Source of the DNA: Psammoneis japonica
Taxonomy: Eukaryota
Direction: 5' to 3'
DNA length: 64,000 nucleotides
NCBI GenBank assembly: GCA_008632985.1
Contig: QPGO01000130.1
Coordinates: forward strand, 62,001 to 126,000
Shown here: in pieces, positions 25,135 to 55,110 of the stretch
Layout: each line of letters opens with the position of its first letter
Numbering within the stretch: position 1 is the stretch's first letter
Program-made: the position numbers and the translations under genes
The notes under the pieces: generated by a model
What the model saw: the letters and a program-made list of their open reading frames with translations, nothing else
Databases searched by the model: none
Told to the model about the DNA's origin: nothing

Positions 25135-25563
25135 ATGGCATCCTCACTTGATGGTGAAACTGACAAAGTCGAAAAATTGCTAGACAAATTTCATAAAGCT
25201 GCGTCGGAAAGCAACTTGGAAGAGTACATGAGCTGTTTCTCCCAGAATGGCAGGTTTCTTGGGACAGACAACGAGGAGAATTGGAGCGCGTCCGAGTTTC
25301 GAGCCTATGCTGAACCAGTGTTTCAAAAGAAACAGGGATGGGTGTATTGCTGCAGACGGCGCCGTGTCGATATTTTTCAGTCAAGTGCCATTGCGATTTT
25401 TGACGAAGATTTGACGAGTCCAACGTGGGGCAACGCGAGAGGTACCGGCTCGATCATACTCGAAAATGACGAATGGAAAATCCTGCAGTATCACTTGTCT
25501 TTTGCTGTCCCAAATAGTCTCGCACGCCAAGTCACAGATATTGTCAAGAGTAAAGGGGTGTAA
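25135..25563 (+). CDS. SnoaL-like / NTF2-fold protein (bacterial-type)
   Basis: LLDKFHKAAS...FLGTD.EENW...EFRAYAEP.F...GW.Y...FDEDL...RGTG...WKILQYHLSF.VPN; intronless. Confidence 0.85.
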   Translation: MASSLDGETDKVEKLLDKFHKAASESNLEEYMSCFSQNGRFLGTDNEENWSASEFRAYAEPVFQKKQGWVYCCRRRRVDIFQSSAIAIFDEDLTSPTWGNARGTGSIILENDEWKILQYHLSFAVPNSLARQVTDIVKSKGV

Positions 25564-25596
25564 TAAGGTGGGAATTGTAAGGGGGGATTTCTCACG

Positions 25597-25810
25597 AAGT
25601 GGTCTATGAGAGGTTTGATCAAGTTGGTTACAAAAGGCGGCTGCAAATACATCGGCCCAGCATCAACAAAAATATTGCCCCCGGCCTCAAGAAGACCTAG
25701 AGTGTATCGCCAAACGTAGTGTTGTCAGCCAAGGGGGCGTGCAAGTAGCGGAGTTGATTCCACAATGACTTGAGCCTCGCAACTTAACAGCATGGTCCTT
25801 TTGACTCAAT
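25597..25810 (-). pseudogene. Degenerate partial duplicate of the COR region of the adjacent ROCO gene
   Basis: gtggtctatgagagg.tgatcaagt.ggttacaaa...aacgtagtgttgtcagccaagggggcgtgcaag aligns to ~27890-28090. Confidence 0.8.
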
Positions 25811-26210
25811 TTCGCCATTTGTAGTCTCCATATTCCCAACTTGCTGCGCCGAAGAGTTTCCACGGCTCTCGTCATGACTTTGGACTAGCGTCCCGACACT
25901 TGATAACCTGGGCTTCGACTTTTCCAAAGCTTTGGCAGTACAAGCCGCTCCGGAATGGCAAATCCTTCAATATGCCGATCAATAGTTTCTTTAGACACTG
26001 CATCTACAAGTAGAAACGTTGAAAGGTGTCAGATGCTTTCATTAAGCTCTTTCTCTTTTCATCCTCTAGAGTGTTTTAAGTAAAGCTCATAAGCTTGCTC
26101 TAGAGTGAGAGAGGAACAGGTGTCGATCAGTCGATACATCATTTTAGCGTTGCCACGTATCCGCCCTGCAATGCCAGCGTATCAGATTAGCCACACCTTA
26201 GCACTGCCAA

Positions 26211-29200: not shown

Positions 29201-29747
29201 AAAGCACCGTCAATGTTTTATTCATTTCTAGCGCTTTTCCAATGGCCATGGCACCCTCGTCTCCAATGGAATTGTTGCCGAGATGAAACACCATCATTGT
29301 TCTATTCGTTTCTAGTGCTTTTCCAATGGCTGCGGCACCCTGGTCTCCAATTGAATTGCAGCCGATATAAAGCCTCACCAATGTTGTATTCATTTCTAGT
29401 GCTTTTCCAATGGCCGTGGCACCCTCATTTCCAATGGAATTGCCGCCGAGATAAAGCACCATCAATGTTTTATTCATTTCTAGCGCTTTTCCAATGGCCA
29501 TGGCACCCTCGTCTCCAATGGAATTGTTGTCGAGATCCAGCACCATCAATGTTGTGTTCGTTTCTAGTGCTTTTCCAATGGCCACGGCACCCTTGGCTCG
29601 AATGGACTTGTTTTCGAGATAAAGCTCCGTCAATGTTGGATCATTTTCTTGGAAGCGACGAATGCTCTCTTGGTAATCTAGGGACAAAACGCGGAACCAA
29701 GGCGCTGACATGTCAATGCTGCTGCTGGAACTTGCCGACTGTCCCAT
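26211..29747 (-). CDS. LRR-ROC-COR-TIR (ROCO family) protein with N-myristoylation motif
   Basis: MGQSASS start; six 28-aa RI-type LRRs (L.L.NNSIGDEGA.AIGKALE.N); P-loop GDGEAGKTS; YDCGGQ; SKVD; COR; CHCC..CPMC; TIR VFLSHRGIDTK...LSPRFRESDYCVMEL. Confidence 0.92.
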   Translation of the reverse strand: MGQSASSSSSIDMSAPWFRVLSLDYQESIRRFQENDPTLTELYLENKSIRAKGAVAIGKALETNTTLMVLDLDNNSIGDEGAMAIGKALEMNKTLMVLYLGGNSIGNEGATAIGKALEMNTTLVRLYIGCNSIGDQGAAAIGKALETNRTMMVFHLGNNSIGDEGAMAIGKALEMNKTLTVLYLGYNSIGYEGAVAIGKTLEMKTTLTILNLENNSITRLPRSFVKLEGMCEFDVDGNPLLEPPLEIARQGLQAISRYFEAVDKGEATISRQLKTVLVGDGEAGKTSLRNAVAGRFPARTKGEEERTIYLNVEPVQIEGPEGLSDDPNTLMLYDCGGQQDYAVGQAPFMTASSLFLLIVAADKAHGDYYEEVVQRFLVLLQARAPGAVVQLVLSKVDLVSDESERKQWLEDKVHGQLQAWRDAAADREEALYGRVIPEGSKKKKPPLLRILPIVLGVSVTSESAIARAREDVSSTIFRHTQDHVEPRLSSVGTLIPKSWQDLWKFFGAILQCGADADEKALFSVASSDDAIPLGEIGNMKTTADGGETDLSAKGPYCSVATLNSLWNQFRFLHAPLADNTTFGDALGLLEARGGIFVDAGLAYLQPSFVTDLIRPLIDHTLTLEKIKSPEFDKEVKSFVKRKKIGLRQDIIDGLTDLTRSGELDALILPFLWRDSNIAQGDYQRILQMLLDSDVIFASPPNPDSSTKKNTSSRATADVLPVVLFRLQKEIPTDWEDLWPEQVPDGQEEQELRLRMYEGCPTSLTAHFAAATHVHGNCVRAWLNGAIVFAEKDRCIRSELVEKKDGEPYLAFSVRYPKDDVLWEETWGLLNGAVSFVSDEVTDHFAGLQYDVVLACHCCIRAGRRQDSHLFGWSKVTNPERRMSSHFCPMCRKNVDFRVVCTKGEAIYSKVGKAARHKVLLNQMMCRLSHFYQAQEVGHDGNHVSPSTAGERNVSNLYTQALLDGVETDVGELSMAGVTIPSSVWQVNLGGDPYVFLSHRGIDTKETIARPTHWFLSEILGLTAFFDDDSMKTGDDKMRSLMEPAHSASHAVVLLSPRFRESDYCVMELNTFMMRRSKGNLVVLPYLWKIQKVDNKFAPAVKEINCCNSRTEDPAYYLVEILWPDLIKSLKGGRQDRSDWDALSLKDKLIQYVEEHRGRQDIPAIDPSLESFVRVHKGG
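29110..29640 (-). repeat. 84-bp LRR-coding tandem array (about 6 units)
   Basis: Near-identical units containing ttctagtgcttttccaatggcc..ggcaccc. Confidence 0.9.
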
Positions 29748-29989
29748 GTTTTTGACAACGAGACTTGTTTCCAAGCAATCCAATCCCAGGCAAGCAGCGC
29801 CAGTGTCTTTTTCGTTTCACTCGATTTTATTTGCCAATTGCGCGAAGATGCGAGTCGTCCGTCCGTCACATTTGCTGGTTGCGCAGCCGCTTCTTTGCGA
29901 TGAAACTGCTCGAATGGAGCAAAAAATGACGATGCATTCAACGAGAAGAGACAGTGTCAATGATGGGGATGTGAGGGACAGTGGCACTC

Positions 29990-30341
29990 GTAAAATGGCA
30001 CAGCAATGGCGGCACAGTGCGGTGTGACAGTCAAGAGATCAAGAGTGCCGCCGGGGCATGGTGTGTTGAAAGTGTGAAAACATGCAAGATGAAGATGCAC
30101 AAAATCGAAAATGCCGGAGGAGAGACCGGCAGAAAAAAAGAAAAATGAAAGAAAGGAAGAATCTGCTCCAGCTGGCTGGCTGGAGGGCAAGTGTTTCTTT
30201 TAATTGTCGCTCCCGCCCAACCAAACTGCCCCTGCTGGTCTGGATGCAGCAAGTGCAGAAAGCAACAGGAGGGGTGTCTTGGCCACCACACACAACAAAA
30301 ATGGCACATTTTCTCCACAGAGAATGGTGGAAATGTGTGGT
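29990..30341. mobile_element. Left part of an older TA-depleted element split by the Gypsy insertion
   Basis: TA-poor sequence outside the TSD; same character resumes at 42552. Confidence 0.45.
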
Positions 30342-30345
30342 GGAG

Positions 30346-30775
30346 TGCCCTGTGCATGCACTGGGCGCTGAAAAGAAGATGTGTTGTGACTTTGTCGTTG
30401 TGAAAATTGTGAGCTAGTTTAGAGTAGAGAAAGTGGGATCGTGCGAATGGGGAATCTTGCCAAAATCCCATTCGCTCGCATTTGGATGTGTCAAATCGAT
30501 CGTGCACTCGCATTGTGGATCATGCGAATCAAGCCATCACGTGCTGTGCACGAGTGATGTCATCATGTGGAATCAGGCTGCCATCGTGGGCCAGACGACG
30601 GGCCAGTGTGCTTCACACGGATGCTCTCTCAGCATCCTTCTGGAATTGCCCAAGACCTGGAGCCACGCCCTCCTGTGGTCGTGCTTCCCAGGTGCGTGTC
30701 AACAACACTGCGTTGCCACGTGCAAGAGGCTCATGCACGGTCTTGCCGTGTTGTCCAGCAGCGAGGCATGCTGCG
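30346..30775 (-). repeat. Gypsy 3' LTR
   Basis: Aligns with 42117-42547; adjacent to the PPT. Confidence 0.9.
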
Positions 30776-30858
30776 CACTCCCCCATGATCAGGGCCGCCA
30801 AGTGACAGGATGTCTTGCTGGTGACAGGGTGCAATCTGCCGCAGATTGCAGGCATCTG

Positions 30859-33800
30859 TCAGCGCTCCGTTCTGGGTGCGCAACGTGCCGTTGTCACATG
30901 GGGCCCCACACGGACAACTCTGGCGGGTCCTGCACAGCTGTCAGAACCGCACTTAGAGGATTGTTCCTGTTTGATGAGCGCCAATTGCCCTGCGGCACAT
31001 TGATGCTCCTTGCGTTTCTGATTTTCGCGCTTGTTGTTCAAGTGGATGAGCTTCTGCTTTCTGGTTTCCACGCACTTCCACTTGGCACGAATGGATGGAA
31101 CCGCATCGCGTCCGAAGACCAATTGCATGGGACTTGCACGCGTGGTCGCATGTGCCGCAGCTCTGACAGCGAAGGCTGCTGCGGAGAGGATGCCACTCCA
31201 CAGGTCATCTTCATCCAGTTCCACATCCTGCACTGAAAAGGAACGCACCATGTCACCAAGTGTCTGGTGTGCACGTTCCACTGTGGCACTCGCCTGTGGA
31301 CTCCATTTGCTTGTGGGTTTCTTCAAAATCCCACAGTCATTTTTAATCATCTGGCCAAATTCTGCCATGAATTCTGTCCCACGGTCATGGGCCACCTGGG
31401 TTGGCCACGGACATCTGCATGGCCACGTTTGTTCCACGACGTTTGCTGCGACGTCTGCGCGTTTCGCAGACACTTCTTCAATCTTGAACCACCTGGTTGC
31501 TGGGTCAATCATTGTGACTGCCCACAATTGCAAAGTGTCCTTTCTGCGTCTTTGAATTTCACATGGCCCTGTCACATCTGTGCATGGAGTCTCCCATGGA
31601 ATTGTCTCTGCGACCTTTTCTGGCAGCTTCCCACAACGCTGCATTCGGCATTTTGTCTTCTGGCATCGATCGCACTTGACGCACGTAGAATGCACTGTAG
31701 ACCTCACACCAGGCCAGCAGAAGTGCTGGGCAACAGACATTTCCACACGTGTCTCACCTGGATGACACAGTGTCTCGTGGCACCATTCAGTTAGCGGAAC
31801 CTGCAATGACTGCGGCACTGCGATTTTGTCCTTGTGACAGATTGACTGTTGTGATGACCCTCCCCCACGACACGTGCGAATGGAGCAGTCGGACGAGTCC
31901 TCAGCTCGTGAGAGCAGGCGCTTGTCCTTTTGTTGTGCTTTTTGAATGCGCTTGAAGCCAACAGGCAGAGACACCTCATCTTGCGCGTCTGCATTAAAAG
32001 CTTCATGCAAAGGATGACTCGATGGAGTGTCTTTTACATCCGGATTGGCCTCGGAAGGCAAGCTGGGTGCTGGCCGAAGGCGACTGAGAGCGTCAGCGAC
32101 TGGGCTGTGGGTGCCCTCAACATGGCGTAATTCGGGACCGCATTTTTCGCATGTCAACCGCCAGCGCATGACGCGCTCGGCATTGAATGCTTTGCACGTG
32201 AGATTTTTATGGTCAGAACACATGATGATGCGATGACCAAGGAGAATCGTTCGAAATTCTTTCAACGTCTCCACAATGGCGAGCAATTCTCTCTCCGTTG
32301 TTGCACAATTTAGTTGCGCACTGTTGAGCTTTCTGCTGCAAAAGGCGACAGGTTTGTTGTCTTGGGACACAACTGCTCCCAATTGACATTTAGAGGCATT
32401 GGCACGCACCTCAAAGGGTTTGTTAAAATCAGGATGTGACAACAAAACATCATCCGATGTCACCCGCTCAACAGCTTCGAACGCCTCGTCTTCAATGGAC
32501 GTCCACTTCCACTTGACAGTCTCACTTGCGAGTCGTGTCAGCGGAGCCAAGACTTCAGAATGTCCAATCCACGTGTCACGGCAGTGGCTCACCACACCAA
32601 CAAATGAGCGCAAGTCGCGTTCATTGGTTGGGGTCGCGATTCGCTCAATGGCGTCAACTTTGTCAGGCATTGGTCGCGTTCCGTCTCTGTTGACCAGACA
32701 CCCAAGCACTCTAATTGGGTTTGACAGAAGTGAGATTTAGTTGCGTCAACTTTTAGCCCTGCTTTCTGGACCCTCAACAAAACTTCTTCAAGTTTGTTGA
32801 GGTGATCTTCATGGGTGCCTTTTGTCACGACGAGAAGGTCATCTGAGTGCGTTCGAATGAACGACAGATCTTCAAATGAGCCTGACATGCATTCTTGGAA
32901 AATGTCTGGTGAATTGCGTGGTCCCATGGGCAACACCTGCATCTCATGCTTGCCCCACGGGAAGATGAGCGTGCAGAGCTTCTTGCTGTCAGCATCCAAT
33001 CGGATGTGACAACAGCCCACATTTGAACCCAGCGATGCAGCCCACACAAAGCCTTCAAGCTCAAGCAGCACATCTTGGACATGAGGAATCGGATAAGGCA
33101 ATCGCTTGATCCGTTTATTCAGCTCTCTGAAATCATTGGTAAAGCGCACCGTTAAATCTTTCTTCGGTATGATGAATGATGGAGCTGCCCATTGGGATCA
33201 GTTAACGCGTTTGAGAACACCGATACGTGCTAGGCGTTCTACTTCTTTACGTAGCGTAGCTTCGTACGCACGAGGTACTTTATACGGACGAGCGTGGCAT
33301 GGTTCTACACCCTCCTTGAGTTGGATATGGTAGGGTTCTCCCTTCCATTCTCCTAATGTCCCATCAAATAAGGACTCATGGCGTTTCAATAGTGCCAAAA
33401 GGTCGTTTTGTTGAACTGTAGAAAGTCCTATTGTCTCTCGCGTTATGTCCTCGAGGCAGGCCGGCGCGTACTTAGCGTCTAAAATACGCGAAATCCGGTC
33501 GGTTTCCGAAGATAAGGCTTCTGGATCTTGAAGATAGAAGGAGGTTTCCACCGTAGCATCTACGTGCCTCATTGGTACTTCTCCATTGACTAATGGCCAC
33601 TCTATCATCTGTTTAGAGAAGACAATATCAAGGCCTTGTGTCTCCAGAATGTCACGTCCAATAATCATATCGTACTTGCCCAACTTTCCGTTGTGTACGT
33701 GGACGGTATGTTTAAGTTCTGCAGTTTCGGATAATTCTGGTAACCAAAATTTAACGGTACAGTCGTTAGACGTACTGAACGAGCCTGCTACCGTAGTCCA

Positions 33801-34073
33801 GTTTGTCTCAGCCGTTGAATGGCTTCGCAGACGTTTACAGTATCGACTGTCGAGTAGAGTACTGCTGGCGCCACTATCTAGTAGTGCCTTAATGGTTTGA
33901 GTCTTGCCCTTGCCATGTTTAGTATTCATAGCTATAAACAAGATTGGAGTAAGATGAGTCTTTTTAACTCGTTTGCGGGATTGGCCTACAACACGTGTAC
34001 GATGGTAATTCAGTTGTTCATTTATACATTCATCTAATGCATTAAAACTACCTGTGTCGTGTCGGCCACCTTC
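30859..34073 (-). pseudogene. Gypsy pol (PR-RT-RH-IN), disrupted by a TGA at 33198 and a frameshift at ~32710
   Basis: ORFs 33198..33941, 32589..33149 and 30859..32709 carry successive pol motifs. Confidence 0.9.
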
Positions 34074-34958
34074 TCAGGTGTCCGAATCTTCGGAATCACT
34101 TAAGTTGAGGTCGCGGAAGTGATTGAGCTCCTCCTCGCGTGCCTTGCGCTTTTTCTGAGCGTTGGCAAAGAACTCCTCGACCTTCGATCCGATGAGAGCA
34201 TCAATGTCTTCCTCATTCCGAGGTTTTGCATTGGGTTTGCTGCCTCCGTTGTTGGAATGTCCAGTCTCAACACGTTTCACGTGGTGCTTGAGCTGACGGC
34301 AATCCTCCGCATGATGTCCACAGTCAGTCCCGTGCAGCACACACGACTTCTGGGTGTTCCGTTGGGTCGTGATCAACGACTCAGGATTGTCCGTTCTACG
34401 TCCCCGCTTGCGTGGAACCTCAGCATGTTGGTCCAGGTTACCTTCGGCAAGCTCGACCTGCTCGATGCGCTCGCAGAACTGCACAAATTCGGCGATGGCA
34501 TGCGCCAACGGGTCAAAATTCTGCAGCGTCATGAACTTCTGCCATGCCTTCGGCACACCGCACTCGAACATGTCGCACAGTTCATCATTGGGCAATGGTG
34601 CCGGTGCTTCTCCATCCTCCGTCACGGGTGGAAACTGAGAGATGCAGCCGTTAATTTCAACAGCCCTCGCGACGCAGTCACGAGCAGAAACCTCTGCGGG
34701 CTTGCGCATGAAGCACTTCAGATGACGCTTCTGCAACAGTGCCGCCCCATGTGGGAAGATGCTTTCCTTTGGCTTCGCAACGCATGCTGTGCACGCAGCG
34801 TTGGTTTGGGATGCCTGCTTGTCAGCGGCATTGTCAAATGACGTCAGAGCATCGCCCTGCAGCAGGTCACGCATGAGGGCAAATTTTGCTGGCCCGGTCG
34901 TCATGCACGCGATCCACATTGCGCAGAAAGATTGGGAGTGTCTCGCATGTAGCCGCAG

Positions 34959-35234
34959 TGACAGAAAATGAAGGCAAATGGCAAGAATTCAAACAACAAC
35001 TCCTTGCTGCTGTCTAAATGGCAGATGAGTCTCCGCTCAGAGACCGTTGCAGGAGCCGAAAGACGTGCAAGTCGGCACAATCGGGCTGCTGTCATTGTTC
35101 TTGTGAGCCTTGTGGCTCGAAAGCAAACTGCATCGTGCGTGAACGCGCGGAACCAAAGCACACAAAACTGTGCATGGTGAGCTAAACAGCGCGCGACACT
35201 TCGCGCGCACCCAAATCCTGTTCAAATCCTGTCA
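34959..35234 (-). repeat. Copia 3' LTR
   Basis: tgacagaaaatg...aaatcctgtca; matches 41597-41872. Confidence 0.95.
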
Positions 35235-38200
35235 CTCCCCAGTTTGCTTGAGGAGCCACAGAAACAGATTCGACTTCGGATGGAATGAAGTTCCAGAACA
35301 TGAGGGGGCGGAGAAGGTCCCAGATTTGGGAGTGACCCCAATGCTTGCTGAGAATGTCAGCAGGGTTGCGGGAGCCTTCGATGAAGTGGAACTCAAGGTG
35401 ACCAGAGGCAATTGCCCCACGCACACGGTGGAACGATGGTGCGGTGTGTCGCTTGTGTAACTTGGAGTGCGGGATGGTGGCACTGTCTACAACCGACTTG
35501 TTGTCACCGAACATGCAACTGACGTCACGGATCGGGACGCCAAGGTGGGTGGCAGTGACGAACTTGCCAAGGGGTGGTGGAGCGTCCTTCGGGATCATCT
35601 CTTCTGCTTCACCATGCACGGAATGCATCCATTCACAGGCCGGAGCAGGGAGATCCGAACAGTCGGGCTCTTCCGTGCGAACGCGGAGAGCACCGTGTCG
35701 CATCTTGGAGAGGTGCCCACAGACGCGTTTGGCACGATCCAAGTGGCCTTGACGGGGCGCAGCTCGGAAGCCAGAGAGTGACATGACGGCCGTGGCAATG
35801 TCAATTCGACCAAGGGACACTGCCCATTGGAGTGAACCAACAAGAGACTGGAACTTGTGAATGCCATCGGGTCCCAGCAGTTCGGAAGTGTCCAGTTCGG
35901 GGTGGTCACCCTTCTCTAGAGGTGACAGGGCGTTGGTGGCAGGTTTCTCCCCAAACAGTCGGGCACAGCTGTCGACCATGCACTCGATGCACTTGCGCGG
36001 AGACAGGCACAAGGTTCCGTCGGGTTCCCGGGAAAAGTCGCAACCCAGATGGAACTCAATGGGTCCCGGACCCTTGAGCTTGAACTTGTGCTTTTCCGTG
36101 AGAGTGTCAACGAAAGATTGAGGGTCCTTCATGGCAATGGCGAGGTCATCCACATAAACGGCAATGCATTCACAGTGGTCGCCGTTCCTGCGCATCCAAA
36201 TGTCGGGTTCGGCACGGCAGGGGAAGAAGCCTTCAGCTCGCAGGCAGTCGGCGAAGCGCTCGTGCCAGCAGAGACCGGAGCTGCGCAGTCCACACAGTGC
36301 CTTGTGGATGACAAGGATGTGTCCTTCGAGTTTGCCGAACTCGGGTCCAGCTGCAATGTAAAGCTTCTCCTTGGTGGTGGCTTCAAGGCAGGCATTGCCA
36401 ATGTCGGTGGCCCATGTCTCCAACTCGTTGAGTTTGGCCAGGAAAATCATCAGCCGAAGGCCACGGAGGGAGACTGCTCCGGAGCAGACACTGTCGACAG
36501 GTGCGTCCGTGAGGTGCCCGTCGGCTACGAGTCGTGCCTTGTGGCGACCGTCGTGTTTCACGTCGCACACTGGGTGCACTCGGATCTTCTTGTGTCCCGC
36601 AGGAGGAGTGGAAGACTCGGAGGGCCCGCAGTCATGGAAGACTTTGCATTCCTCGAGTTGGTCCATCTTGAAACCAGTTGCGTCTCCCCATTTGCGGTTG
36701 CCGTTGTGTTCGTCTAGTGACATGGCGTGTTCGCAGTTCCGGGGAACTTCGTGTCCACACTTGTGGCGAGGTGCAGTGCGGAAGGAGCGAAGCTTGGCTT
36801 GGTTGGCCATGCGAAACAGCTTCTTTTGGCGCCTCGCGATGGTGCGGAACCGCTTCCAGCCATCCGTGTCGAGGAGTCCGTTCTCTCGTGCATAGATGGC
36901 ACAGGTGACGGGGTCGTCCTTGGCGATGATGGCAAGAGGCTCGGACGTGATCTCCCCACTTTCCCATTCAAGCATGATGTTGTAGCTGGAGCCTTTCCAG
37001 GTTGGGTCGTGAGGCTTCAGAGGTCCTTCGTGTGACACGATGCGTCGAAATTTCCAAACAGTGGTGTCTTCGTCTTCTTGCTCAATGTGATTCATGATGT
37101 CATTGCAGGCAAGGACTTCCTCGCATTCGTCATTGTTGACAGAGCAGACGAACTTGGTGAGCTCGGGATTGCCGTTCACTTTCCATTCGTGGTCTTCAAC
37201 GGCCTTGACGATGCGAGCTCTGTGGCGTTGTCCGTCCTCTTGTGGCTGCATGAGGAAGGTACGTCCAATGATGTCTTGCGGATCGAAAACTGGCATCTTG
37301 GGTGTCCTGATCTCCCCATCAGGAGAGTCGACGGGGTTGTCGTCATGGCGAGATTTGATGATGGGTTCAGGTGGCTCCCCATCAGGAGGATCAAGACGCA
37401 GGTTTCGAACGGCAGGATCGGGGGTAGCGGAGCGGACGTTGGACCGGCAGAGGATCTTCTGAGTCTTGTCAGATAGAATCTTGAAGGTCATCTGGTGGCC
37501 GACGTGCTCAGCAATGCCAACGAAGCGTCCACGCAACTCATGGGATTCGGACGGCCAATCGGAGTCATCGAGGTGGAAGTGCACGGGTTCCCACCAGTGA
37601 AAGCGAAGCAATGGGCTGATGTCCGGGGTGGAGCCAGTGAGAGTCTCGAGGGGCGTGCGCCAGTGGAGACGTGGGGACGCTGCATGGTTGAGCATGAAGC
37701 ACACGCACATGAGCGCCAGCAGCCATGCATGGGCGGGCGAACCAAAACGATCCATGACAGTGTTCGCCATGCGCTTCACGGTCTGGCATCGACGCTCGGC
37801 AAAGTTTTGGTGTTGCTGGTGAGGCTCACTTTGCCAGCTAGAGATGAAGAGGGCGCGTAGGATCCCGAGCACTTTGTTGCTGATCTCAACTTGAGCACGG
37901 TCGCTAATGAGTTTGGATGGGGCACCACGTTCACGGATCTGATCCTCGAGTGTGTTGACAAACTCTTTGTCCGTCTCAGTGCCGCAGACGTCAGTGACGG
38001 TAGACTCGGTGCCAACAAACAGTTGGGCGCTGGTGCAACCAGAGTCGACGGCCGGGGTGTCGGCATGAACGGTGTCAGTGGCGACAGGCTCGTTGCGGCG
38101 GTGCACATTAAGGGCGGGGTTGGGTGATTTGCAGGCCTTGCGAAGGTGTGTGCCGGTGGGCATGCGGGCGCACTGCGTGGTGCAGTCAAAAGTACGACGG

Positions 38201-40653
38201 ACCGCATCGGCAGGCAGGAAGCCAAAGTGAGGCCGAAGAGACTCGAAGGGGGGGTCCTTGGGCTGTACAGTGCGCTCCGGAGGTGGAACGTCATCGCCCT
38301 GGGGGCCAATCGCATGCAGATGACACTCGTAGAACACGTCGTCGTTCGGAATGAGGTGATCATCGAGGGCGGACGCGTGATCGGCAGACAAGGAAGCGGA
38401 CATGATGGTCTCGTTGACAACGACACGATGACGGTGGTTGCCGCATTCGTCAAACAGGTTGGCAGTGGGATCGTCCTGCAGGTCAGAGATCGCGTCGCAC
38501 CACTGGTCGTCGTCAGTGACAGAGTGATCGAGGACGGAAGGGTCCCATGTGTCATCACTGGTGAGGATGACATGGGGCAGGGTGTCCCATTCGGCGTCAG
38601 TGTAAGGTCGCATGGCAACACAAGGCAGGCCAGCCTTGACGTCAATGGGGATGACATGGCCATCAGGAGTGGCAATACGTTGCAAGCCGTTGGGCACCCT
38701 GACAGAGCGATCGTTGACATCCTGGTTGTGCCATTCGAGCTGGCCGCAGGAATGGATGGTCTTGCCCTTTCCCGTGCATGCATGCTGATGGAGGATGGCG
38801 ATGACGGGACCACGCTGGGTCTCAATAACGGCACCAGCAGTGACAATGGGGATGTCCACCAATTGATGATCGTCAATGCCCTGAACGTCGACTTGGCGAG
38901 AGGTGCGTGCAATGACGCGAACGTCGTCGCCAGCAATGCCGCCGTTGGCCCCACGATCGACTAGAGCGCCAGTGCGTGTGGAGCGATGAGCAGAGGCAGA
39001 GCAAATGACATTGTGGTTGTCAACGCGGCGGCAAGTGCGGCCGTTAAGTTCTGTGTCATCTGCAGAAGCTGGCGGGGTAGAGGAAGCGGCGGATGGCCCC
39101 GGTCGACTGGCATTGGGGGCTTGGTTAGGAGACAACAGACGTTGCAGATCACCGGGTGGCAGTGGCTTGCGCTTGGTGAGGTGCGCCAGGATGGGATCAT
39201 CCGAAGTGGCGTCCACATGTGGAGCGGAGTCACCAGAGTCAGCAGGAGTCGTGTTGGACAAGTTGACATCACCGTCACTCCCAAGGCGTTGGTCGTGAAG
39301 GTTGGCCGTAACAGACTCATGGCAGTCACTGGCTCGCGGGTTGCGGGGAGGTGGACGAGAATGCTCAAGGATGATCACCTTGGAGGAATCGGGCAACGAA
39401 TCCCAGAGCCGTTGGTGGTCGGGAGGGAGACGTCTCCATTGGACACCGGTGAGGCTGGGACCGCGGGTGCAGGCAGCATTGGCTTGAAGGACGTCAATGT
39501 CGCTGTCAATGTCGTAGAACACATCGTCGGATGGTTCCTCGGAGCAGACGTCGTGTGCGTGTGTGGCGCGTCGGGGAGCTCGAGGTGTCGTCTTGGGTTG
39601 AAACGTGCTGTCACACTGAGCTGCCGCGGAGAGGAGCAAGCCACAGTGTTGATCGCATGTGAGGCTCTTGCCACTCTGCGTACGATGCTGATCAGCTTGG
39701 TTCTTGACAGCACGGAGTTCCTCGACAGGGTGCACGGCATTCTCGAGCATGACGCGCTTCTGTCCTTCAGAGAAGTGGTCACTGGCCGGGATGAGTGCCT
39801 CGCACTTGCGCAACTGATCTTGCCAATGAAGGATGAACCCGTGGGTCGGACCTTTCCAAGTGCCATCACCAAGACGCGCGGTGGTGAGGTGCGTGAGCAG
39901 GGTGGAGGACTCGACAGATGCGCGGGTGGAGGCAAGCGCGCACTCAGACAAGGAGCGGCAGATGGTCTGTGCGTCAGAAGACCCCACATTTTCGCGAATG
40001 AGAGCCTTGCCCTTGTCGGTGAGAAGGATGCGTTCGAAGACGGCGAACATGTGCTTTTGCTGTTCAGCAAAGAGCAGTTTGTCTTCGGGGCTGGTCGGTT
40101 TGTACGACGAGTCTAGAATGCACTCGACGTCTTGGGCACGGGCTTGTGCCACAAGTGAGGTGTGCCAAGTGTGCCACTGCTTGTCGGATTTGAGCGCCGT
40201 GAAAGCGGTGGGATCACGCTTGATGCCTCGCTTGAAGTCCCGCACCGGGTCGCGTGCCTTGGTCGGGTTGGTGACATGTGGAGGTGCAAGGGGTGAGCTG
40301 CCGATGGACACAGAAGACATGTGGTCGGGGCTGAGGCGGTGGGCAAGGAACTCGTCATGCATGAACAAAGAGGAGTTGTTGGCAACGTCAAGACCTTTGT
40401 GTGCTTTGACAATGTACAGACTGACTAGTGCTGCTAACATGTTCTTGTGACCATGGGGCAAAGGGATTGCATTGGTGCCGTTGTCGCACTCAAGCGAGTC
40501 GATTTGGGACGGCATGAACGTGAATGGTTCCTGATGCGAGTCCATGCCGTCTTGGGCCAAAGCCAAACGAAGAGGACTCCCAGCACCTTGGGCAAGCACG
40601 GTTCCAACCACGTGCTCGAAACCATCGGTTTGTTGCTGACGAGTGAGAACCAT
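35182..40653 (-). CDS. Copia gag-pol polyprotein (hypermutated, RNase H core deleted, probably non-functional)
   Basis: FKRGIKRD; protease ALVDRGANGG; integrase ATDT..LISDRAQVE..SEPHQQHQNFAERR; RT DVKHDGRHKARLVA, KALCGLRSSG, YVDD; RNase H end FGDNKSVV, NPADILSK. Confidence 0.93.
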   Translation of the reverse strand: MVLTRQQQTDGFEHVVGTVLAQGAGSPLRLALAQDGMDSHQEPFTFMPSQIDSLECDNGTNAIPLPHGHKNMLAALVSLYIVKAHKGLDVANNSSLFMHDEFLAHRLSPDHMSSVSIGSSPLAPPHVTNPTKARDPVRDFKRGIKRDPTAFTALKSDKQWHTWHTSLVAQARAQDVECILDSSYKPTSPEDKLLFAEQQKHMFAVFERILLTDKGKALIRENVGSSDAQTICRSLSECALASTRASVESSTLLTHLTTARLGDGTWKGPTHGFILHWQDQLRKCEALIPASDHFSEGQKRVMLENAVHPVEELRAVKNQADQHRTQSGKSLTCDQHCGLLLSAAAQCDSTFQPKTTPRAPRRATHAHDVCSEEPSDDVFYDIDSDIDVLQANAACTRGPSLTGVQWRRLPPDHQRLWDSLPDSSKVIILEHSRPPPRNPRASDCHESVTANLHDQRLGSDGDVNLSNTTPADSGDSAPHVDATSDDPILAHLTKRKPLPPGDLQRLLSPNQAPNASRPGPSAASSTPPASADDTELNGRTCRRVDNHNVICSASAHRSTRTGALVDRGANGGIAGDDVRVIARTSRQVDVQGIDDHQLVDIPIVTAGAVIETQRGPVIAILHQHACTGKGKTIHSCGQLEWHNQDVNDRSVRVPNGLQRIATPDGHVIPIDVKAGLPCVAMRPYTDAEWDTLPHVILTSDDTWDPSVLDHSVTDDDQWCDAISDLQDDPTANLFDECGNHRHRVVVNETIMSASLSADHASALDDHLIPNDDVFYECHLHAIGPQGDDVPPPERTVQPKDPPFESLRPHFGFLPADAVRRTFDCTTQCARMPTGTHLRKACKSPNPALNVHRRNEPVATDTVHADTPAVDSGCTSAQLFVGTESTVTDVCGTETDKEFVNTLEDQIRERGAPSKLISDRAQVEISNKVLGILRALFISSWQSEPHQQHQNFAERRCQTVKRMANTVMDRFGSPAHAWLLALMCVCFMLNHAASPRLHWRTPLETLTGSTPDISPLLRFHWWEPVHFHLDDSDWPSESHELRGRFVGIAEHVGHQMTFKILSDKTQKILCRSNVRSATPDPAVRNLRLDPPDGEPPEPIIKSRHDDNPVDSPDGEIRTPKMPVFDPQDIIGRTFLMQPQEDGQRHRARIVKAVEDHEWKVNGNPELTKFVCSVNNDECEEVLACNDIMNHIEQEDEDTTVWKFRRIVSHEGPLKPHDPTWKGSSYNIMLEWESGEITSEPLAIIAKDDPVTCAIYARENGLLDTDGWKRFRTIARRQKKLFRMANQAKLRSFRTAPRHKCGHEVPRNCEHAMSLDEHNGNRKWGDATGFKMDQLEECKVFHDCGPSESSTPPAGHKKIRVHPVCDVKHDGRHKARLVADGHLTDAPVDSVCSGAVSLRGLRLMIFLAKLNELETWATDIGNACLEATTKEKLYIAAGPEFGKLEGHILVIHKALCGLRSSGLCWHERFADCLRAEGFFPCRAEPDIWMRRNGDHCECIAVYVDDLAIAMKDPQSFVDTLTEKHKFKLKGPGPIEFHLGCDFSREPDGTLCLSPRKCIECMVDSCARLFGEKPATNALSPLEKGDHPELDTSELLGPDGIHKFQSLVGSLQWAVSLGRIDIATAVMSLSGFRAAPRQGHLDRAKRVCGHLSKMRHGALRVRTEEPDCSDLPAPACEWMHSVHGEAEEMIPKDAPPPLGKFVTATHLGVPIRDVSCMFGDNKSVVDSATIPHSKLHKRHTAPSFHRVRGAIASGHLEFHFIEGSRNPADILSKHWGHSQIWDLLRPLMFWNFIPSEVESVSVAPQANWGVTGFEQDLGAREVSRAV

Positions 40654-41596
40654 GGCAGACGAAAGTGGTGTCAGGACAATCAATTCTGGTTGGGAAGCGA
40701 AGGTAGACTCGAAACTTGGGTGAGAATAGACTTGACTTGAAATGGACTTGACTTGAAATCTTGAACTATCTTAAAATCAGAAGTCGCCGGGCTTTGTCAT
40801 CCCGTTCGTTGTCAAGTGCTAAACTTCCCATCCGGTCCGCAGAGTTGTGCCGGCACGTCCGAACCCGCAGCTGGTGGCGCTTTGGGTTGCTTGCGAGCGG
40901 AGTAGCGGGTTGTAAACCCCTGCAGGTAAGCTGACTAGAGGTGGACAAGACCCCCGAACCGTTCTTGTTTTATGTCGGTTGGATTTCCCGATCAGGCTGG
41001 CCAGTTGATGCAGGCGTCAGGCGCTGTGGACGAACGAACAAACGCGGGAAAGCACCCTCGCCCCAACGCAGGCTGTAATCACGGCTACCTGCTCTCACAG
41101 TCGTCCTCGTGGACCTAGTGGAACTGTAGAGCACCAGCAGTCCGGGGCAGATCAGGTGCAATGGACTCGGTGTGCTTGTAGAGTGGCAGCAAAACCGCAG
41201 TCCGAAGAGTGGATAAAGGTTCTTGGCCGTGAAGATGTGCACATATACATGTGCATGTCTTCAGCGACTAAGATCCTTGAACATGTAGGGTTCTTGACCG
41301 TTAACCGAGGAATGGGCACATCAAGGGATGTTGATCAAGGATAGACTTGGATATGACCGTTGAACGTGAGTCTTCAGCGATCAAAGGTAGTGTGATCAAT
41401 CCAGATATCCAGCGGTAAGGAGACTTGACGGTGACGTTAACTTCCTGCCGATGCCCTGGCATTGAATGCGCGTAGACTTGCCGATGTATGTAGAATGTAT
41501 ACGGAGGTCCACGTAGAATTGAAATGGCGTCGTTGGTAAATCAACGACGACGATGGCGGTTGCTCAATGGGTTGACAATGAGCAAGACTGTTAATC

Positions 41597-41872
41597 TGAC
41601 AGAAAATGAAGGCAAATGGCAAGAATTCAAACAACAACTCCTTGCTGCTGTCTAAACAGCAGATGAGTCTCCGCTCAGAGACCGTTGCAGGAGCCGAAAG
41701 ACGTGTGAGTCGGTGCAATCGGGCCACTGTTGTTGTTCTTGTGAGCCTTGTGGCTCGAAAGCAAACTACATCGCGCGTGAACGCGTGGAACTAAAGCACA
41801 CAAAACTGTGCACGGTAAACTAAACAGCGCGCGACACTTCACGCGCACCCAAATCCTGTTCAAATCCTGTCA
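41597..41872 (-). repeat. Copia 5' LTR
   Basis: Matches 34959-35234. Confidence 0.95.
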
Positions 41873-42116
41873 CGCAGAAAGGCACGGAATGCCCATCTCG
41901 TGCGTTGGACCATCCGGATCAGCAGGGTTGTTGCGCAGCTTGAACGTCTGGTGCTCGCCCTGCTGCAGCTCTTTCTTCTCCGGCCGTGCGAACGGAGTCG
42001 GCGGCTTGGTCCGCTTCTTCATGGTCATTTTAAGATTTGTCGGTCCCACCAACATTTCGCAGTTTCGTTTCTGTGGATTTCGTCACCTTGCACAACATGC
42101 GGGAGTGACATCACTG

Positions 42117-42547
42117 TGCCCTGTGCATGTGCCAGGTGCTGAAAAGAAGATGTGTTGCGACTTTGTCGTTGTGAAAATTGTGAGCCAGTTTAGAGCAGAG
42201 AAAGTGGGATCGTGCAAACAGGGAATCTTGCCAAAATCCCATTCGTTCGCATTTGGATCGCATCAAATCGATCGTGCGTTCGCATTGTGGATCGTGCGAA
42301 TCAAGCCATCACGCACTGTGCACGAGTGATGTCATCGTGTGGAATCAGGCTGCCATCGTGGGCCAGACGACGGGCCAGTGTGCTTCACACGGATGCTCTC
42401 TTGGCATCCTTCTGGAATTGCCTGAGACCCAGAGCCATGCCCTCCTGTGGCCATGCTTCCCAGGTGCGTGTCAACAATGCCACGTTGCCACGTGCAAGAG
42501 GCTCATGCACGGTCTCGCCGTGTTGCCCAGTGGCGAGGCATGCTGCA
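42117..42547 (-). repeat. Gypsy 5' LTR
   Basis: Matches 30346-30775; followed by TSD GGAG. Confidence 0.9.
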
Positions 42548-42551
42548 GGAG

Positions 42552-43550
42552 GCCAAGCAGAAAAAATGCAGTCTCAAGCAAAGCAAGTCTCACTTTGAGA
42601 TTTTTCATGTGGTGAGCTGGCAGATGAGCTTGATCTTCAGCTGAGTGATTGTCATCATTGCAGCACATGTGGCCATTGTGTGCTGCACTCTCAGGGGGGC
42701 ATGTTGCCTGTCTGAGCACACCAGAAAGGATGCACTTCAAGCACAGACAATTTTGCTCAATCACAAAATTCCTTTTTTTGTTGGTGATCATTGGCTTCTT
42801 GTGTTGACCACCACCTGAAATTTTTCTGTTGCAGGGGCTTGTGCACCACAGGAGAGCTGGGCTCAGTGTTGCACGACATCCCACCTCTGGGGCTGGAATG
42901 TGTCGGGTGTGTGGCATCATCTCAAAAATGCCTGCTGCTGCTCAGGCCCCACAAAGTGTTGGCAGAGGGGCCACACACCACCTGCCAGTGACACAAGCAT
43001 GTGTTGCTTGTGCAGGGGGCTGGCGCAGGCTTGTGCTGGCTCAGCACAGTGGCTGGCGTGGCCAGCAGCAGCCTGGCTCTTGACACCAAAGCATGACAAA
43101 ACAACATGTGAACCCACTGCTGTTGCACTTGTCTCTCCATCAACACCACTCCATGAAGAAAAAACCTGAAACCTGCAGTGGCGAGAGTGTGCGCCCCAGT
43201 GATGCGCCAGCTCTGGTGCGCACCTGGAGACACGTGGCTCAACCACTTTTTGTCAAAATGGGCCCCAAAACATGCCAGACACAAAACATCTCATTGTGGC
43301 ATTGTCATGAGGGGACAGTGGGGTTGTCAACTTGCAATGACACACCAGCGTCCCGGCGGGTCCAAGTGTCAGTGTTCTCACTGTGCAGAGCTCCGCGGCC
43401 CGCCAGACTCAGCGCTGTTCAAAAATGAGCTTGTGGCTCTCTGTGGTGCATGACAAACACACCAGCCTGTGACAGCATTTGTTGGAGATTTTCTCTGGAC
43501 AGCAACTTGTCCAAAGAACAGGTTGTGCACAGACATTCGTGTTGAAACAA
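42552..43550. mobile_element. Right part of an older TA-depleted unclassified element
   Basis: TA-free, CG-poor tract. Confidence 0.45.
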
Positions 43551-45799: not shown

Positions 45800-47047
45800 T
45801 CACCAGAAGTTCCTCCTCTTTTTATTGGAGTTCTCGTTGGACCAGGGATACAGCCTTTTGAAAGTGGCTGCGGATTCGTCAGCTTCTTTGTTGCCATCTT
45901 TATCCTGGCCTTGAAAATCGAATTGCTTGCACTGTATCACCTTAAGAATGAACTTGAGTGTTTTAATCAAGCAAAGGTTTTTCTTCGTCTTATCAAGGGT
46001 GCTGAGAAGCTGGTCCAGCGAATCCTGGCAACCTTGAAGCAACGGCGTTTGCAATGATTCATCTTCTTGTTGAAAAATCTGGACAAGAAACTCCTTTGCC
46101 GGTAGACGGCTGTTTTAAGGTAGGCTTTGCAAGGTCCATTAGCTTTGAACCTTGCTTCTACATCGAGAGCACAATCGCACGTTTCTGCCTTGTACTCATT
46201 CATCCTACGCTTTACTACTCGCCCCCATTGTCCACACTCACCACAACAATCCCAATCTCGACAGGGACACTCGCCCCTGTCGGGGCCTTCGACAATGTAC
46301 GAGTCAATGCCCTCGCATTCGCAGTGCTCGCCTTTCACCCAATCATCAAAGCACAGGGTTTTCTCAGCATCCGTTGCCTCGAGAATCGAAGTCATCATTT
46401 CACAAGCTGTTTCTCGAGCCGTGGACACAGCCAACAGGCGACTGTGGGCCACGTCATCAAAGTGTGCACGCAAGACTCTGGGGAGCTTGAATTTAGAAGA
46501 AAGCGATCGCTTCACATTGGCTTCCTCTTCCAGCACCTCTGCCATTTCCTCCAGTCTACTCATCTTCTCTTTCACATCCTTGGCGAATTGAACAATCTCC
46601 TCTTTCTTCACGCTTGCCTTTTTAAATCATGCGTTGGGATCTTCTTCACCATCTGCTTGAGTTCCTTTTTGAGTTCGAGGTGAGACTTTGCACCCTCGGT
46701 GCACAAAACCTTTCCTCCGTTTTTCGTTTTGCCGCAACCGTGTCGATCAAGCTTGAGATGTTCTCAAGCCATTGCTCATTGTCACCAGAGCAGTCATCGT
46801 CATCTTGCATTTCCATGTCGAACGAACCAAGTTCGAAGGCCTCTGGAGGTGGCACGACTTTGGTGATCTCGACCGGGTTGTCGTCATGATCCTCTTCTGA
46901 TTCTACATCATTGCAGTGTGGATCATGCGATTCATGCTTTCTCTCAGCCTTGGTGGCCAACTGCTTTCTCGGGACCATGGATCCCGTGTGTTGTCGGGCA
47001 GTCTTGAACCTTGGCAACTTGCTCCTGCTGCTTCTTTTGCACATCAA
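45800..47047 (-). CDS. Unknown protein with N-terminal histone H3 tail-like motif, acidic stretch, coiled coil and Cys cluster (about 3 frameshifts)
   Basis: ORFs 46646..47047, 45967..46611 and 45800..46054 are contiguous across small indels; motif [25 protein letters not shown]. Confidence 0.6.
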
Positions 47048-47149
47048 GCTGATTCTTCCCTTGCTGGGTGGCTTTGCTGCTCTTCACAACCGTCAATTTT
47101 GTTGGCCTCACACGTTACAACACCTCCTTGTTCAGCTTCCTCCGATGTG

Positions 47150-50100
47150 CTAGCTCCAAAAGAAGAAGAGTGTGACACCAAAAACAAAACAATGACAACT
47201 GACAACGGCCGGCCGCATTTGCCGGTGTGCACGGCAAATTTGATGGTGCCGCAATGCAATGCGTGCACCGGTGCTTGTCAAAATTTGAAAAAATAAAAAA
47301 TGGTGGGACCAGGCCTGCGGGGAGCATTGACCACTTGTCTTTCTTTTTGTGGGTGTGGGTGTGTGCCGTTGCATGCTGTGTTGCCTGCACGCACGTGGGC
47401 CCTGCCGCCGGGGCCGGCATTGTGGCGGCGTGGCCACCACACCGGTGACGCGGATGACCATTGTATTTGATGTCTCATGCCATTTTTGGGGCTGTGGCAA
47501 GGTGCACGGACACTCTTTTTTTTCCAATTTATCGCCACAGTGGCGCATCGCACAAACTCACTTGTTGTTGACATGTTTTCCCAAATGTGACTGTTTCATG
47601 TAGAATTCACAATGAATTGTCTTTGTTCACAAATGATGCATTTTTCAACATGCCACGCCGGCAATCCCAATTTTTGAGAACTTTCGAGCTCTCCTGAAAA
47701 ATCGTGCCACGCACCTGTCGCAGGGAATTTGTCGATTTTTTAGGATGTCCCCACGACCTCTCATGTCCTCAATGATCATTCTGCGAATCCGAAGAATTCA
47801 TCTGCACCAAACAACCCATCCTGCTCCAAAATCTGAGGGACACACTTTCAAATTCAGACGGACTGCCCGACTGCCCGACTGCCCGACCCCCCGACTGCCC
47901 GACTCCCGACCCCGACTGCCGGACCGACACGAAAAAGTCTGCAATCACCAACCACTGAGTGGTCAATGAAAGTTTCATTAATGCACAAATGTTCATGATT
48001 GAATAAGAACATTTTGGTGTCATTTTGGCGCCACATTTTTCAAAAAAAGCGAAGATGCCCTGCTTTTTCTTTTGGGTGCACCCAAGACAAATTGACACAA
48101 TGGCAAAGGCAAATGAGGCAAAAGCAAAGGTGGTGCAAGGAGTGGTGCTGATTGCTGCCACCACAAGAAGTGCTTGTGCTGATGCCAGTGCTGAGTGGCG
48201 ATGATGACAACCAAGAAGAAGGCCCGCACACTTGAGGTTGAAAAGAGGCCCGCTTTGGGCTCAGCGTTGGAAAACAGAGATGAGTCGTCAGAGCCAATTC
48301 TGTCATTAAGATGCCAGAGAATTGCTGTCACATGCCACTTCAAAGTTCTTGGTGAGTGCACCACCCAGACAATGAAGAGTCATGGAAAAGTCACAACAGG
48401 CTGATTTTGTCACACAATCAGAAACTCAATCAAGACATGGAGGGGTGCTGAGGTTGCACTCCTCCCACATTTCATGCATGTTTGGAGTGCCAACAAAATG
48501 GCGCACTGCATGGCTGAGAATGCAGAGCTGTTGTCAAGGGCAGCAGCCACCATGGCCAGCCTCCTGTGCTTCAGCAAACGAGCTTTTGAGAAGGGTCAGA
48601 TTGCTGCAGACACACAAGAGAAAATTTGCTCAGGATTTCTCCAATGTGGCATGTGCTGTCAACCACCATTGCAAAGAATTGGGTGAGGACAGTGCAACAA
48701 AGTTAGCCATCTTGTTCCTTGCCATCAGAGGTGAGCAAGAACCAAACTGTCAAAGTGATGGTGCAGCCAAGCTGCCATGGACGATTGCGATTGCACGTGC
48801 AAACACTTTCGACTCAATTTTTGATGTGTCTTGGATTTCAGGACCTGCAGCATGAAGAAACAAAGGATCCTGTTGCTGGCAATGCTGCTGCTTGCATCCC
48901 AGAACATTGTGAAAAAACAAGATTGCTCCAACTCAACTTTCAAAAACAGCTTGGTGGGATGAAACCCACAGACACAATGCACGTGGCTGGAAAGTTGGGT
49001 GAGAAAGAGTTCTTTTTGGTGTGTCCAAGACACAAAAATGTGTGTCATGATCAAAACAGAATGCAAGAGCTTTCCTTGTTTGCAACACAGCATCATCATT
49101 GGGAGAGACAAGTTCAAGCATTCTGGAGCTCTCCAAGCACTTGAATTGATTGAGATTGCTGTTGATGTGGCAATCATCATCCAGGCACATGATGCCATTG
49201 CCAGTGCTGTTTCCATCATTTAGAATGATGCAAAGGTTAAGGCCACTTCACACTGTGAATCTTTTTGTCACTGCAAAGTCAAAAAACAGCTGGCTCAACT
49301 GCATGCTCAGGTCAAAGCGGGCTCACAAAGAGCAAGGCACAGCTTGCTGTCAAAGAGCTGTTCATTGATCAAGATCAGGAGTGGCGACACACCAATTCTG
49401 AGAGCTGCTCACTTGCAATGCAAGAAAGAAAGAGAGCTTTGTGGGGCACATCGGAAGGTCTTCAGGTGGCTCGTCCACAAACACTCCCATGTTTGTGTCA
49501 CTGAGCCTCCTCCAAATTGTGCCAAGCTGCTGGCAAGGATGAATGCTGAAGGCTTTGTTGAATTTCATTGAGTTTGTTTCAAGGACAAAGCAATGCAGAA
49601 ACAGACAAAAATTGAACAAACATGACAATGTCACAGATGTTGGTCTCTTCTCACTTCTTTTTCTTTTTTCAATGTGACAACAATGGGGTGCTGGGGTGCC
49701 AAATTCATTTGTGAGGAGAGAAACCACAAGTCACAATGTTGCTTTATGCTGTGCCATCCAACCATCAGTTGTCTCTCGTTCATCTCTTTGCAAAACCTGA
49801 ACAAAACTTGTGTTTGCATCTCTGGAGTTAAAAATTCAGTCATGAGAAACTTGAGTTGCAGTGGAAAACAACCATGAGTTGAACCACATTGTCTGCTGTC
49901 TGCACCAACCATTGGGGGGCTGCATGGCAACTGTGTTCACATCTCCTCTGTCTTGACAGGAAAACCATGCATTTTGCAGATTCAGTCTCACAATCACCTG
50001 AGCAGTGACAGCAGAAGATGCCACAGATTTGCCATTGCAAGTCATTGGTCATTCCAAGATCTGACAACATGAATTGGTTGTGTCAGTCCTGTGAATGGGA

Positions 50101-55030: not shown

Positions 55031-55110
55031 CACGAATAGACTTTTCCAGGGACGAATCTGTGAATTCTCCATGTCTCCGCTAAATCGCTTCAGGGGAAAT
55101 CATCGGACAC

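Follow-up and report, generated by a model that had tools for sequence, protein, structure and literature searches.

How do the two long terminal repeats (LTRs) of a single retrotransposon come to read TG against CA at the same positions? The question is raised by a Ty1/Copia element on the minus strand (34959–41872) of a 64,000-nucleotide stretch of the Psammoneis japonica genome (GenBank assembly GCA_008632985.1, contig QPGO01000130.1, positions 62,001–126,000 of the forward strand), here called the window and used for all coordinates; the element is nested in a Ty3/Gypsy element. Taken as a whole, the explanation we consider likely is post-integration, TA-specific hypermutation of both elements. 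After each integration, the chromosomal DNA of the Copia and Gypsy elements would undergo a dinucleotide-specific hypermutation in which the A of 5′-TA-3′ becomes G on either strand, so that TA ends as TG or CA. About 75–95% of the TA sites in each copy would be reached and host genes would be spared. Loss of the same TA on opposite strands in the two LTRs would leave TG in one and CA in the other, and a separate, slower decay of CpG to TpG or CpA would give rise to the CG sites and to the CG loss of older blocks.

The Copia LTRs are a sister pair, with TG...CA termini and a matching 5-bp target-site duplication, CGCAG, on either side (34954–34958 and 41873–41877). Both are 276 bp long and lie in direct orientation on the minus strand; the left copy (34959–35234) is the 3′ LTR and retains two TA dinucleotides, and the right copy (41597–41872) is the 5′ LTR and retains five. 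Their alignment is gapless and contains 18 differences, all of them transitions. An earlier note had listed these differences by eye, with no transversions or indels, and the alignment reproduces that list exactly: five TG/CA doublets (35019–20, 35068–9, 35076–7, 35087–8 and 35093–4), three sites where one copy has TA (35130, 35154 and 35179; TA is always in the right-hand LTR), four sites with CG against TG or CA (35136, 35148, 35175 and 35203) and one AA/AG site (35181). Both TAs common to the two LTRs stand in a CTAA context. When 18 random transitions were simulated on the LTR, the mean number of TG/CA doublets was 0.21, and five or more arose in none of 100,000 trials.

The Gypsy element that hosts the Copia (30346–42547) repeats the pattern. 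Its RNase H/integrase, reverse transcriptase (RT) and protease frames are on the minus strand, as are its LTRs (30346–30775 and 42117–42547), which have TG...CA ends and a putative 4-bp duplication, GGAG, at 30342–30345 and 42548–42551. The two LTRs differ by 38 substitutions, all transitions, plus one 1-bp indel. These comprise 11 TG/CA doublets, against a mean of 0.69 expected from random placement, two TA sites, ten CG sites and four others.

Because loss of CG and loss of TA both leave TG or CA behind, the direction of change had to be established independently. We aligned the Copia polyprotein, a gag–pol open reading frame (ORF) of 1,862 amino acids (35182–40770, minus strand), with 60 full-length homologues drawn from the best 120 of 1,438 matches; their identities are 49–57%, and the top match in a search of the region reached 69%. 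Columns in which at least 70% of the 60 homologues have Tyr, which is encoded by TAY, were taken as conserved, giving 48. At these columns the residues of the Copia element are 22 Cys (TGY), 15 His (CAY), four Phe, one Trp and six Tyr, whereas the same test applied to each homologue found 0–3 changes of Tyr to Cys and 0–3 of Tyr to His. Consistent with this, Tyr makes up 0.54% of the Copia protein compared with 3.0–4.5% (about 3.9%) in the homologues, and Cys 2.9% compared with 0.5–1.3%. The Gypsy element behaves likewise. With 24 homologues picked from the best 150 matches, its hypermutated pol segment (30859–33014, minus strand; C-terminal part of RT, RNase H and integrase) retains none of about 18 conserved Tyr residues (30862–33014), and the replacements include 11 Cys and four His. 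As a host control, a UvrC-like frame in the window keeps 10 of its 12 conserved Tyr, and none has changed to Cys or His.

Methyl-CpG deamination would explain the swap sites differently: each was once CG, lost on a different strand in each LTR. CpG decay does also yield TG and CA, sites with CG against TG or CA exist (four in the Copia pair and ten in the Gypsy pair), and older blocks of the window are depleted in CG. However, CG is kept in both LTRs at 16 Copia and 20 Gypsy sites, against the four and ten single changes. A G-test fit of the unchanged, single and double site classes in each LTR pair gave 1.3 and 4.7 expected doublets under CG origin, against the 5 and 11 seen, with far too many singles, and rejected that origin (P = 2.5e-4 for Copia, P = 2.7e-5 for Gypsy); an origin from TA is acceptable (P = 0.12 and P = 0.09). 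Conserved Arg residues are intact where conserved Tyr is lost: of 62 in the Copia protein, a single one has become Cys, and there is no change to His, Gln or Trp. Moreover, the element has a rho(CG) of 0.91 against a rho(TA) of 0.23, and the letter frequencies among family copies, described below, need TA states. The summed pyrimidine–purine dinucleotides (TA, CG, TG and CA) are unchanged, at 0.248 in hypermutated DNA and 0.239 in host DNA, as expected if TA and CG were converted into TG and CA. We give next to no credence to CpG decay as the source of the doublets. The earlier note had taken TA as ancestral at the swap sites; the Tyr replacements, the rejected fit and the family copies all support that state, and these comparisons demonstrate both a polarity and a dinucleotide specificity. 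Its list of sites is to be divided, with the doublets and TA sites fitting the TA process and the four CG sites falling to the separate, slower decay of CpG.

When, and on which molecule, did the changes arise? Pre-integration editing, by an ADAR-like enzyme acting on RNA or a deaminase acting on cDNA with the mutations then copied into the chromosome, would suit the neighbour preference, since A>G with a 5′ U neighbour is what ADAR prefers (according to the Discussion of the preprint bioRxiv 10.64898/2026.01.13.699255), and edited retroelements are documented in animals (in the part of PMC4866542 drawn on here). Yet one template serves both LTRs, which should then share their states, and the sister LTRs are opposite at five (Copia) and eleven (Gypsy) sites. 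Editing of the template RNA or cDNA cannot be the source of opposite states at one site in the sister LTRs of two elements. Both strands are struck without strand coordination: along the Copia ORF, the Cys and His states form 28 runs where 20.0 are expected, leaving no strand clustering. Unassigned non-LTR blocks and flanks are also affected, and islands left unmutated, whose borders fall within a coding domain, misfit the editing of a whole transcript. Editing before integration is accordingly very unlikely. Mutation after integration and on both strands follows from the opposite states of the sister LTRs, the alternation of states and the repetition of the pattern in the Gypsy pair, and each TA of the integrated duplex would therefore have been struck independently, on either strand. 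In this the earlier note, which had argued for independent post-integration changes on both strands and against RNA editing or reverse-transcription error, is borne out. Sister LTRs thus offer a natural, clock-free proof of action on integrated DNA.

Further copies of the family are abundant in Logan contigs from four runs of one sample, which we placed on 30001–43000 at 80% likeness. Summed word-depth reaches 70,000–154,000 over the Copia and 10,000–26,000 over the Gypsy, compared with 52.5 for a single flank contig, values that are not copy numbers. The family states given for individual sites come from 41 of about 960 variant rows, and from contigs rather than raw reads. TA, TG and CA states coexist among the copies. 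At 35615/6, where the window has TG, the other letters take 48% (C) and 73% (A) of the depth, which puts TA at no less than 25%; at 36293/4, where it has CA, they take 74% (T) and 64% (G), which puts TA at at least 10%. Family depth at 36089/90 is split about evenly between TG and CA, and at 35179, one of the sites with TA in a single LTR, 43% of it is A. At 35175, about 91% of the depth is C, against T in the left LTR, and this site, one of the four CG sites, is polarized as CG>TG. Five contigs join 34955 directly to 41876/41877 and represent Gypsy copies without the Copia. Their target site reads CGTAG or CGTGG, where both duplications in the window read CGCAG; the TA in this Gypsy copy had thus already become CA before the Copia landed.

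Such abundance would also favour ectopic gene conversion, in which the LTR differences were patched in from other family members and do not date to after insertion; the untouched islands could then be tracts from unmutated copies. Against this, variation within the family includes transversions and indels (in run X1, 880 places of change are transitions and 71 are transversions), and the 56 differences of the two LTR pairs contain no transversion. The frequencies of the site classes agree with TAs mutating independently of one another, and the donor copies would still need the same conversion of TA to TG or CA. We regard gene conversion as an improbable origin of the LTR differences. The contigs also bear on the possibility of an artefact, in which modified TpA sites in transposon DNA were misassembled or miscalled. 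Some long-read base callers make systematic transition errors at modified bases. In the independent run X1, however, 57% of sampled 31-letter words from 32501–42500 are found exactly, the independent contigs themselves show TA/TG/CA variation among copies, older blocks are CpG-depleted as well, and the borders of affected DNA are sharp. An artefact is therefore extremely unlikely.

The same contigs hint at the history of the insertion. An empty-site contig from run X1 (1,142 bp) joins 30341 straight to 42548 with a single GGAG and has nine differences over 794 bp, and all four of the differences displayed are transitions. The 12.2-kb Gypsy-plus-Copia insertion may tentatively be taken as absent from an allele, as an insertion polymorphism, or else from a paralogue of the old repeat that received the Gypsy. 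The DNA that received the Gypsy was itself older and depleted in TA and CG (42548–43550, continuing on the left side at about 29600–30341).

Outside the LTRs, the Copia polyprotein matches the Copia-type reverse transcriptase RVT_2 (PF07727, E = 4.4e-23), the sole domain that Pfam reported for it and its homologues when the Ty1/Copia order, integrase ahead of reverse transcriptase, was looked for. The copy lacks 66 RNase H residues, in frame near 35545, that at least 90% of the 60 homologues have; loose ends of contigs from other copies at 35545–35548, the same spot, continue into unlike sequence. With its conserved Tyr lost (0.54% Tyr) and Cys raised, the polyprotein is predicted to be biochemically dead despite its open frame. 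Between 34500 and 42300 there are 34 stop-free frames of at least 100 codons, in all six frames and overlapping across 7.8 kb, because TAA and TAG stops have been lost. For the same reason, gene finders will call long false frames wherever those stops vanish.

How far does the loss of TA extend? We profiled the window in 500-bp steps for rho(TpA), rho(CpG) and CpA/TpG. Stretches with host genes have rho(TpA) of 0.45–0.75 and rho(CpG) of about 0.9–1.1. Depleted blocks, with rho(TpA) of 0–0.2 and CpA/TpG of 1.4–2.1, lie at 5501–13500, 22001–23000, 29600–33014, 34100–40600, 41597–43550, 46501–52000 and 62500–63000. TA makes up 0.54% of dinucleotides in hypermutated blocks compared with 3.76% in host stretches, and TG plus CA is raised. 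By this profile, and by the retention of Tyr in the UvrC-like host frame, TA hypermutation is confined to blocks of mobile DNA. Tandem repeats within host genes have normal TA content, so repetition by itself is not the trigger. The oldest blocks are also poor in CG (rho(CG) of 0.03–0.4); they include 5501–13500 (rho(TA) 0.03–0.19, rho(CG) 0.07–0.40, CA/TG 1.7–2.1) and a second TA- and CG-depleted block at 46501–52000. In both, almost all TA and CG is gone (rho down to 0.02–0.1) and CpA/TpG is near 2.0. Because CG is lost there and kept in the young Copia (0.91), CpG decay is a second, slower process. A search of 19 frames in these two old blocks found no credible Pfam domain. The block at 22001–23000 is short and lies between host genes.

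Within the elements, two islands of about 1 kb are untouched. One, in the Gypsy (33094–34101, minus strand; protease and N-terminal part of RT), has rho(TpA) of about 1.0 and keeps four of four conserved Tyr. Its border falls inside the RT domain, with a Tyr codon on one side (33095) and Cys codons on the other (33014 and 33011), and the frame runs uninterrupted across it. The other, in the Copia (40704–41592, minus strand; leader and start of gag), has 36 TA in 889 bp, a host-like density. The LTR adjoining this island is the one that retains five TA, compared with two in the other LTR, and the depth of family contigs over the two islands is no lower than elsewhere. The islands could reflect either gene conversion at a later time, with an unmutated copy as donor, or places missed by whatever guides the process.

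These islands are one of several points that weigh against post-integration TA hypermutation as we have framed it, as the model offers no explanation for them. The model also leaves a surplus of unchanged TA (pooled G-test, P = 0.012), which we attribute to resistant contexts. At 35437/8 the window has TG, where about 96% of family depth is CA and about 4% is TA; either the ancestors of this copy belonged to a minor lineage that still had TA, or the site changed in two steps. The polarization of doublets by family copies covers two sites in the ORF rather than the five in the LTRs, and the LTR states were read from the assembly and contigs rather than from raw reads. Lastly, some coordinates of the Gypsy Tyr codons may be shifted by the alignment mode, although the ones at the border of the island were checked manually.

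If TA hypermutation is at work, what is its chemistry? Our leading idea is that adenine in the DNA is converted to hypoxanthine by a TadA/ADAT-like deaminase that prefers T-A-pyrimidine and would be directed to silenced mobile DNA by some mark or guide. Relative to host DNA, the density of retained TA in hypermutated blocks is 0.60 in TTAA and 0.47 in CTAA/TTAG, and falls to 0.06 in GTAC, 0.02 in GTAT/ATAC and 0 in ATAT. At Tyr codons, the coding-strand A, in TAY context, was struck 37 times and the other strand 19 times. The ratio of Cys to His is 16:13 after a preceding A or G, when the other strand also reads TAY, and 21:6 after C or T, when it reads TAR; the preference of His-type events for a preceding A or G is no more than suggestive (Fisher P = 0.095). 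These contexts suggest a T-A-pyrimidine preference.

The same process could have another chemistry: a modified thymine at TpA that mispairs with G, or error-prone patch repair at WA motifs by an enzyme like polymerase eta. Mispairing is a property of modified thymines such as 5-hydroxymethyluracil, and WA>WG is the signature of polymerase eta. T>C at TpA mirrors A>G, so the attacked base is indistinguishable from sequence. Polymerase eta would, however, strike AA too and give transversions, and among the 56 LTR differences AA/AG accounts for one and transversions for none. We hold these chemistries to be unlikely overall, though with a small real chance, and continue to favour adenine deamination.

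Whatever its agent, TA hypermutation would distort the dating of insertions. Estimated TA loss per copy is 0.75 in the Copia LTRs, 0.92 in the Gypsy LTRs and 0.86 at Tyr codons (37 of 43), and the differences outside TA and CG sites amount to one in about 210 positions (Copia LTRs) and four in about 330 (Gypsy LTRs). Total LTR divergence is 6.5% (Copia) and 8.8% (Gypsy), compared with 0.5% and 1.2% once TA and CG sites are left out. The figures support the view, already put forward in the earlier note, that LTR divergence overestimates age here; naive dating would overstate it about 13-fold for the Copia and 7-fold for the Gypsy. With roughly 2–3 events per TA site and 0.0024–0.006 changes per other site, TA would mutate a few hundred-fold faster. 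LTR-divergence dating is employed for diatom transposon histories, for example in the passages used here of bioRxiv 10.1101/2025.10.24.684338, and wherever the TpA process acts, such ages would come out several-fold too old.

The window also holds host genes, for an FG-GAP protein, an RBR ligase, an LRR-Roc-TIR protein and a UvrB/UvrC-like protein. The first is an uninterrupted frame of 2,239 codons rich in FG-GAP repeats (13941–20660, minus strand), whose TA is normal despite the internal repeats. A single 1,201-codon frame (26211–29816, minus strand) combines LRR, Roc GTPase and TIR domains, resembles innate-immunity proteins and adjoins a TA-depleted block at its 5′ end. Frames at 54990–59311 (plus strand) carry a UvrB-type helicase motif, a UvrB C-terminal motif, and GIY-YIG and UvrC RNase-H-like domains. 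Together these resemble a single bacterial-type gene in which UvrB and UvrC are fused, broken by short gaps that may be introns, in a eukaryotic context; among named sequences, a diatom transcript matches it best. For two host genes, the closest proteins with a species name come from the diatoms Pseudo-nitzschia arenysensis (49% identity) and Chaetoceros tenuissimus (43%).

A metagenome scan with the Copia polyprotein returned 22 loci with 36–58% amino-acid identity over the best segment, none of the same family. Twenty-one of these relatives have rho(TpA) of 0.51–0.85, mostly with low CG. The remaining locus, L002 (1–3516), has rho(TpA) of 0.27 and CpA/TpG of 1.53, and may represent hypermutation of a further copy, in a different organism.

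The closest known system is the TpA hypermutation of integrated viral DNA in the chlorarachniophyte Bigelowiella natans (Mettrop et al., bioRxiv 10.64898/2026.01.13.699255, 2026), the only description of TpA-specific DNA hypermutation that a full-text literature search returned. The parts of that preprint drawn on here report that 230 of 231 new mutations in the integrated giant-virus and virophage regions of mutation-accumulation lines were A>G or T>C, all at TpA. They also give a rate of about 6e-7 per site per generation compared with 3.5e-10 elsewhere, some 1000 times background, and describe activity in only some lines. An ADAT2-like or TadA-like adenine deaminase is proposed there as a candidate agent, also as a hypothesis, and TpA-poor coding sequences of B. 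natans are enriched for reverse transcriptase and DDE domains.

The likenesses to what those parts report are many. Change is almost exclusively A:T>G:C (here, all 56 LTR differences are transitions, with the direction given by Tyr>Cys/His at 37 of 48 columns), and TpA becomes TpG or CpA by strand (here, 16 doublets and five TA-versus-TG/CA sites in the two LTR pairs). Foreign or mobile DNA alone is affected and the rest of the genome is normal (here, by the 500-bp profile of the window and the UvrC-like control). Chromosomal DNA is acted on after integration (here, by opposite sister-LTR states with intact target-site duplications), and the long-term outcome is low TpA with high CpA plus TpG. 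By analogy, the process in the window is probably of the same kind.

There are also differences. The targets here are LTR retrotransposons, and the preprint text drawn on nowhere uses the words LTR, retrotransposon or Copia. TA is reduced to 0.54% of dinucleotides here compared with 3.3% in the nucleocytoplasmic large DNA virus region of B. natans, a CpG component accompanies the TpA signature, and borders are sharp with islands left untouched. The rate is deduced from LTR pairs here and was measured there, and the host here, judging from the diatom relatives of two host genes, is probably a diatom or a near relative. TpA hypermutation thus has a precedent in B. natans, but LTR retrotransposons are a new target for it and this lineage is probably a new setting; the passages used of two papers on diatom transposons (PMC2806351 and bioRxiv 10.1101/2025.10.24.684338) make no mention of such a process.

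Fungal repeat-induced point mutation (RIP) likewise strikes mobile DNA after integration, through transitions only and with a dinucleotide bias; it inactivates many copies and inflates LTR divergence. Unlike the process described here, RIP changes C to T, mainly CpA to TpA, and creates TA and stops, whereas here TA is destroyed, frames stay open and tandem repeats in host genes are spared. By the Tyr test and the dinucleotide profile its polarity is opposite, and we rejected fungal RIP as an explanation. With APOBEC3 and ADAR in animals the process shares a deaminase-type, transition-only and neighbour-dependent hypermutation of retroelements; those enzymes, however, act before integration on cDNA or RNA and with strand asymmetry, whereas here action came after integration and on both strands, and sister LTRs differ. 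The methyl-CpG decay of silenced transposons resembles the second, slower component here, seen at 14 CG-versus-TG/CA sites in the two LTR pairs, and leaves the doublets, the loss of Tyr codons and the loss of TA unaccounted for.

That a near-saturated TpA signature marks the LTR retrotransposons of an alga probably unrelated to B. natans suggests that this is a genome defence widespread among eukaryotes rather than the curiosity of one species. A natural DNA adenine deaminase with a T-A-Y preference, if that is what acts here, would be of interest to base editing. More speculatively, and as a possibility we would not put at even chances, diatoms or this lineage may possess a RIP-like defence of opposite chemistry, in which a guided T-A-pyrimidine DNA adenine deaminase erases nearly every TA after integration in whole transposon families, with tract borders sharp to less than 100 bp. 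The untouched 1-kb islands would then be places where the guide or chromatin mark was missing, the loss of CpG might be the work of the same enzyme as a dual A/C deaminase, and the system would be either shared with Bigelowiella or convergent on it.

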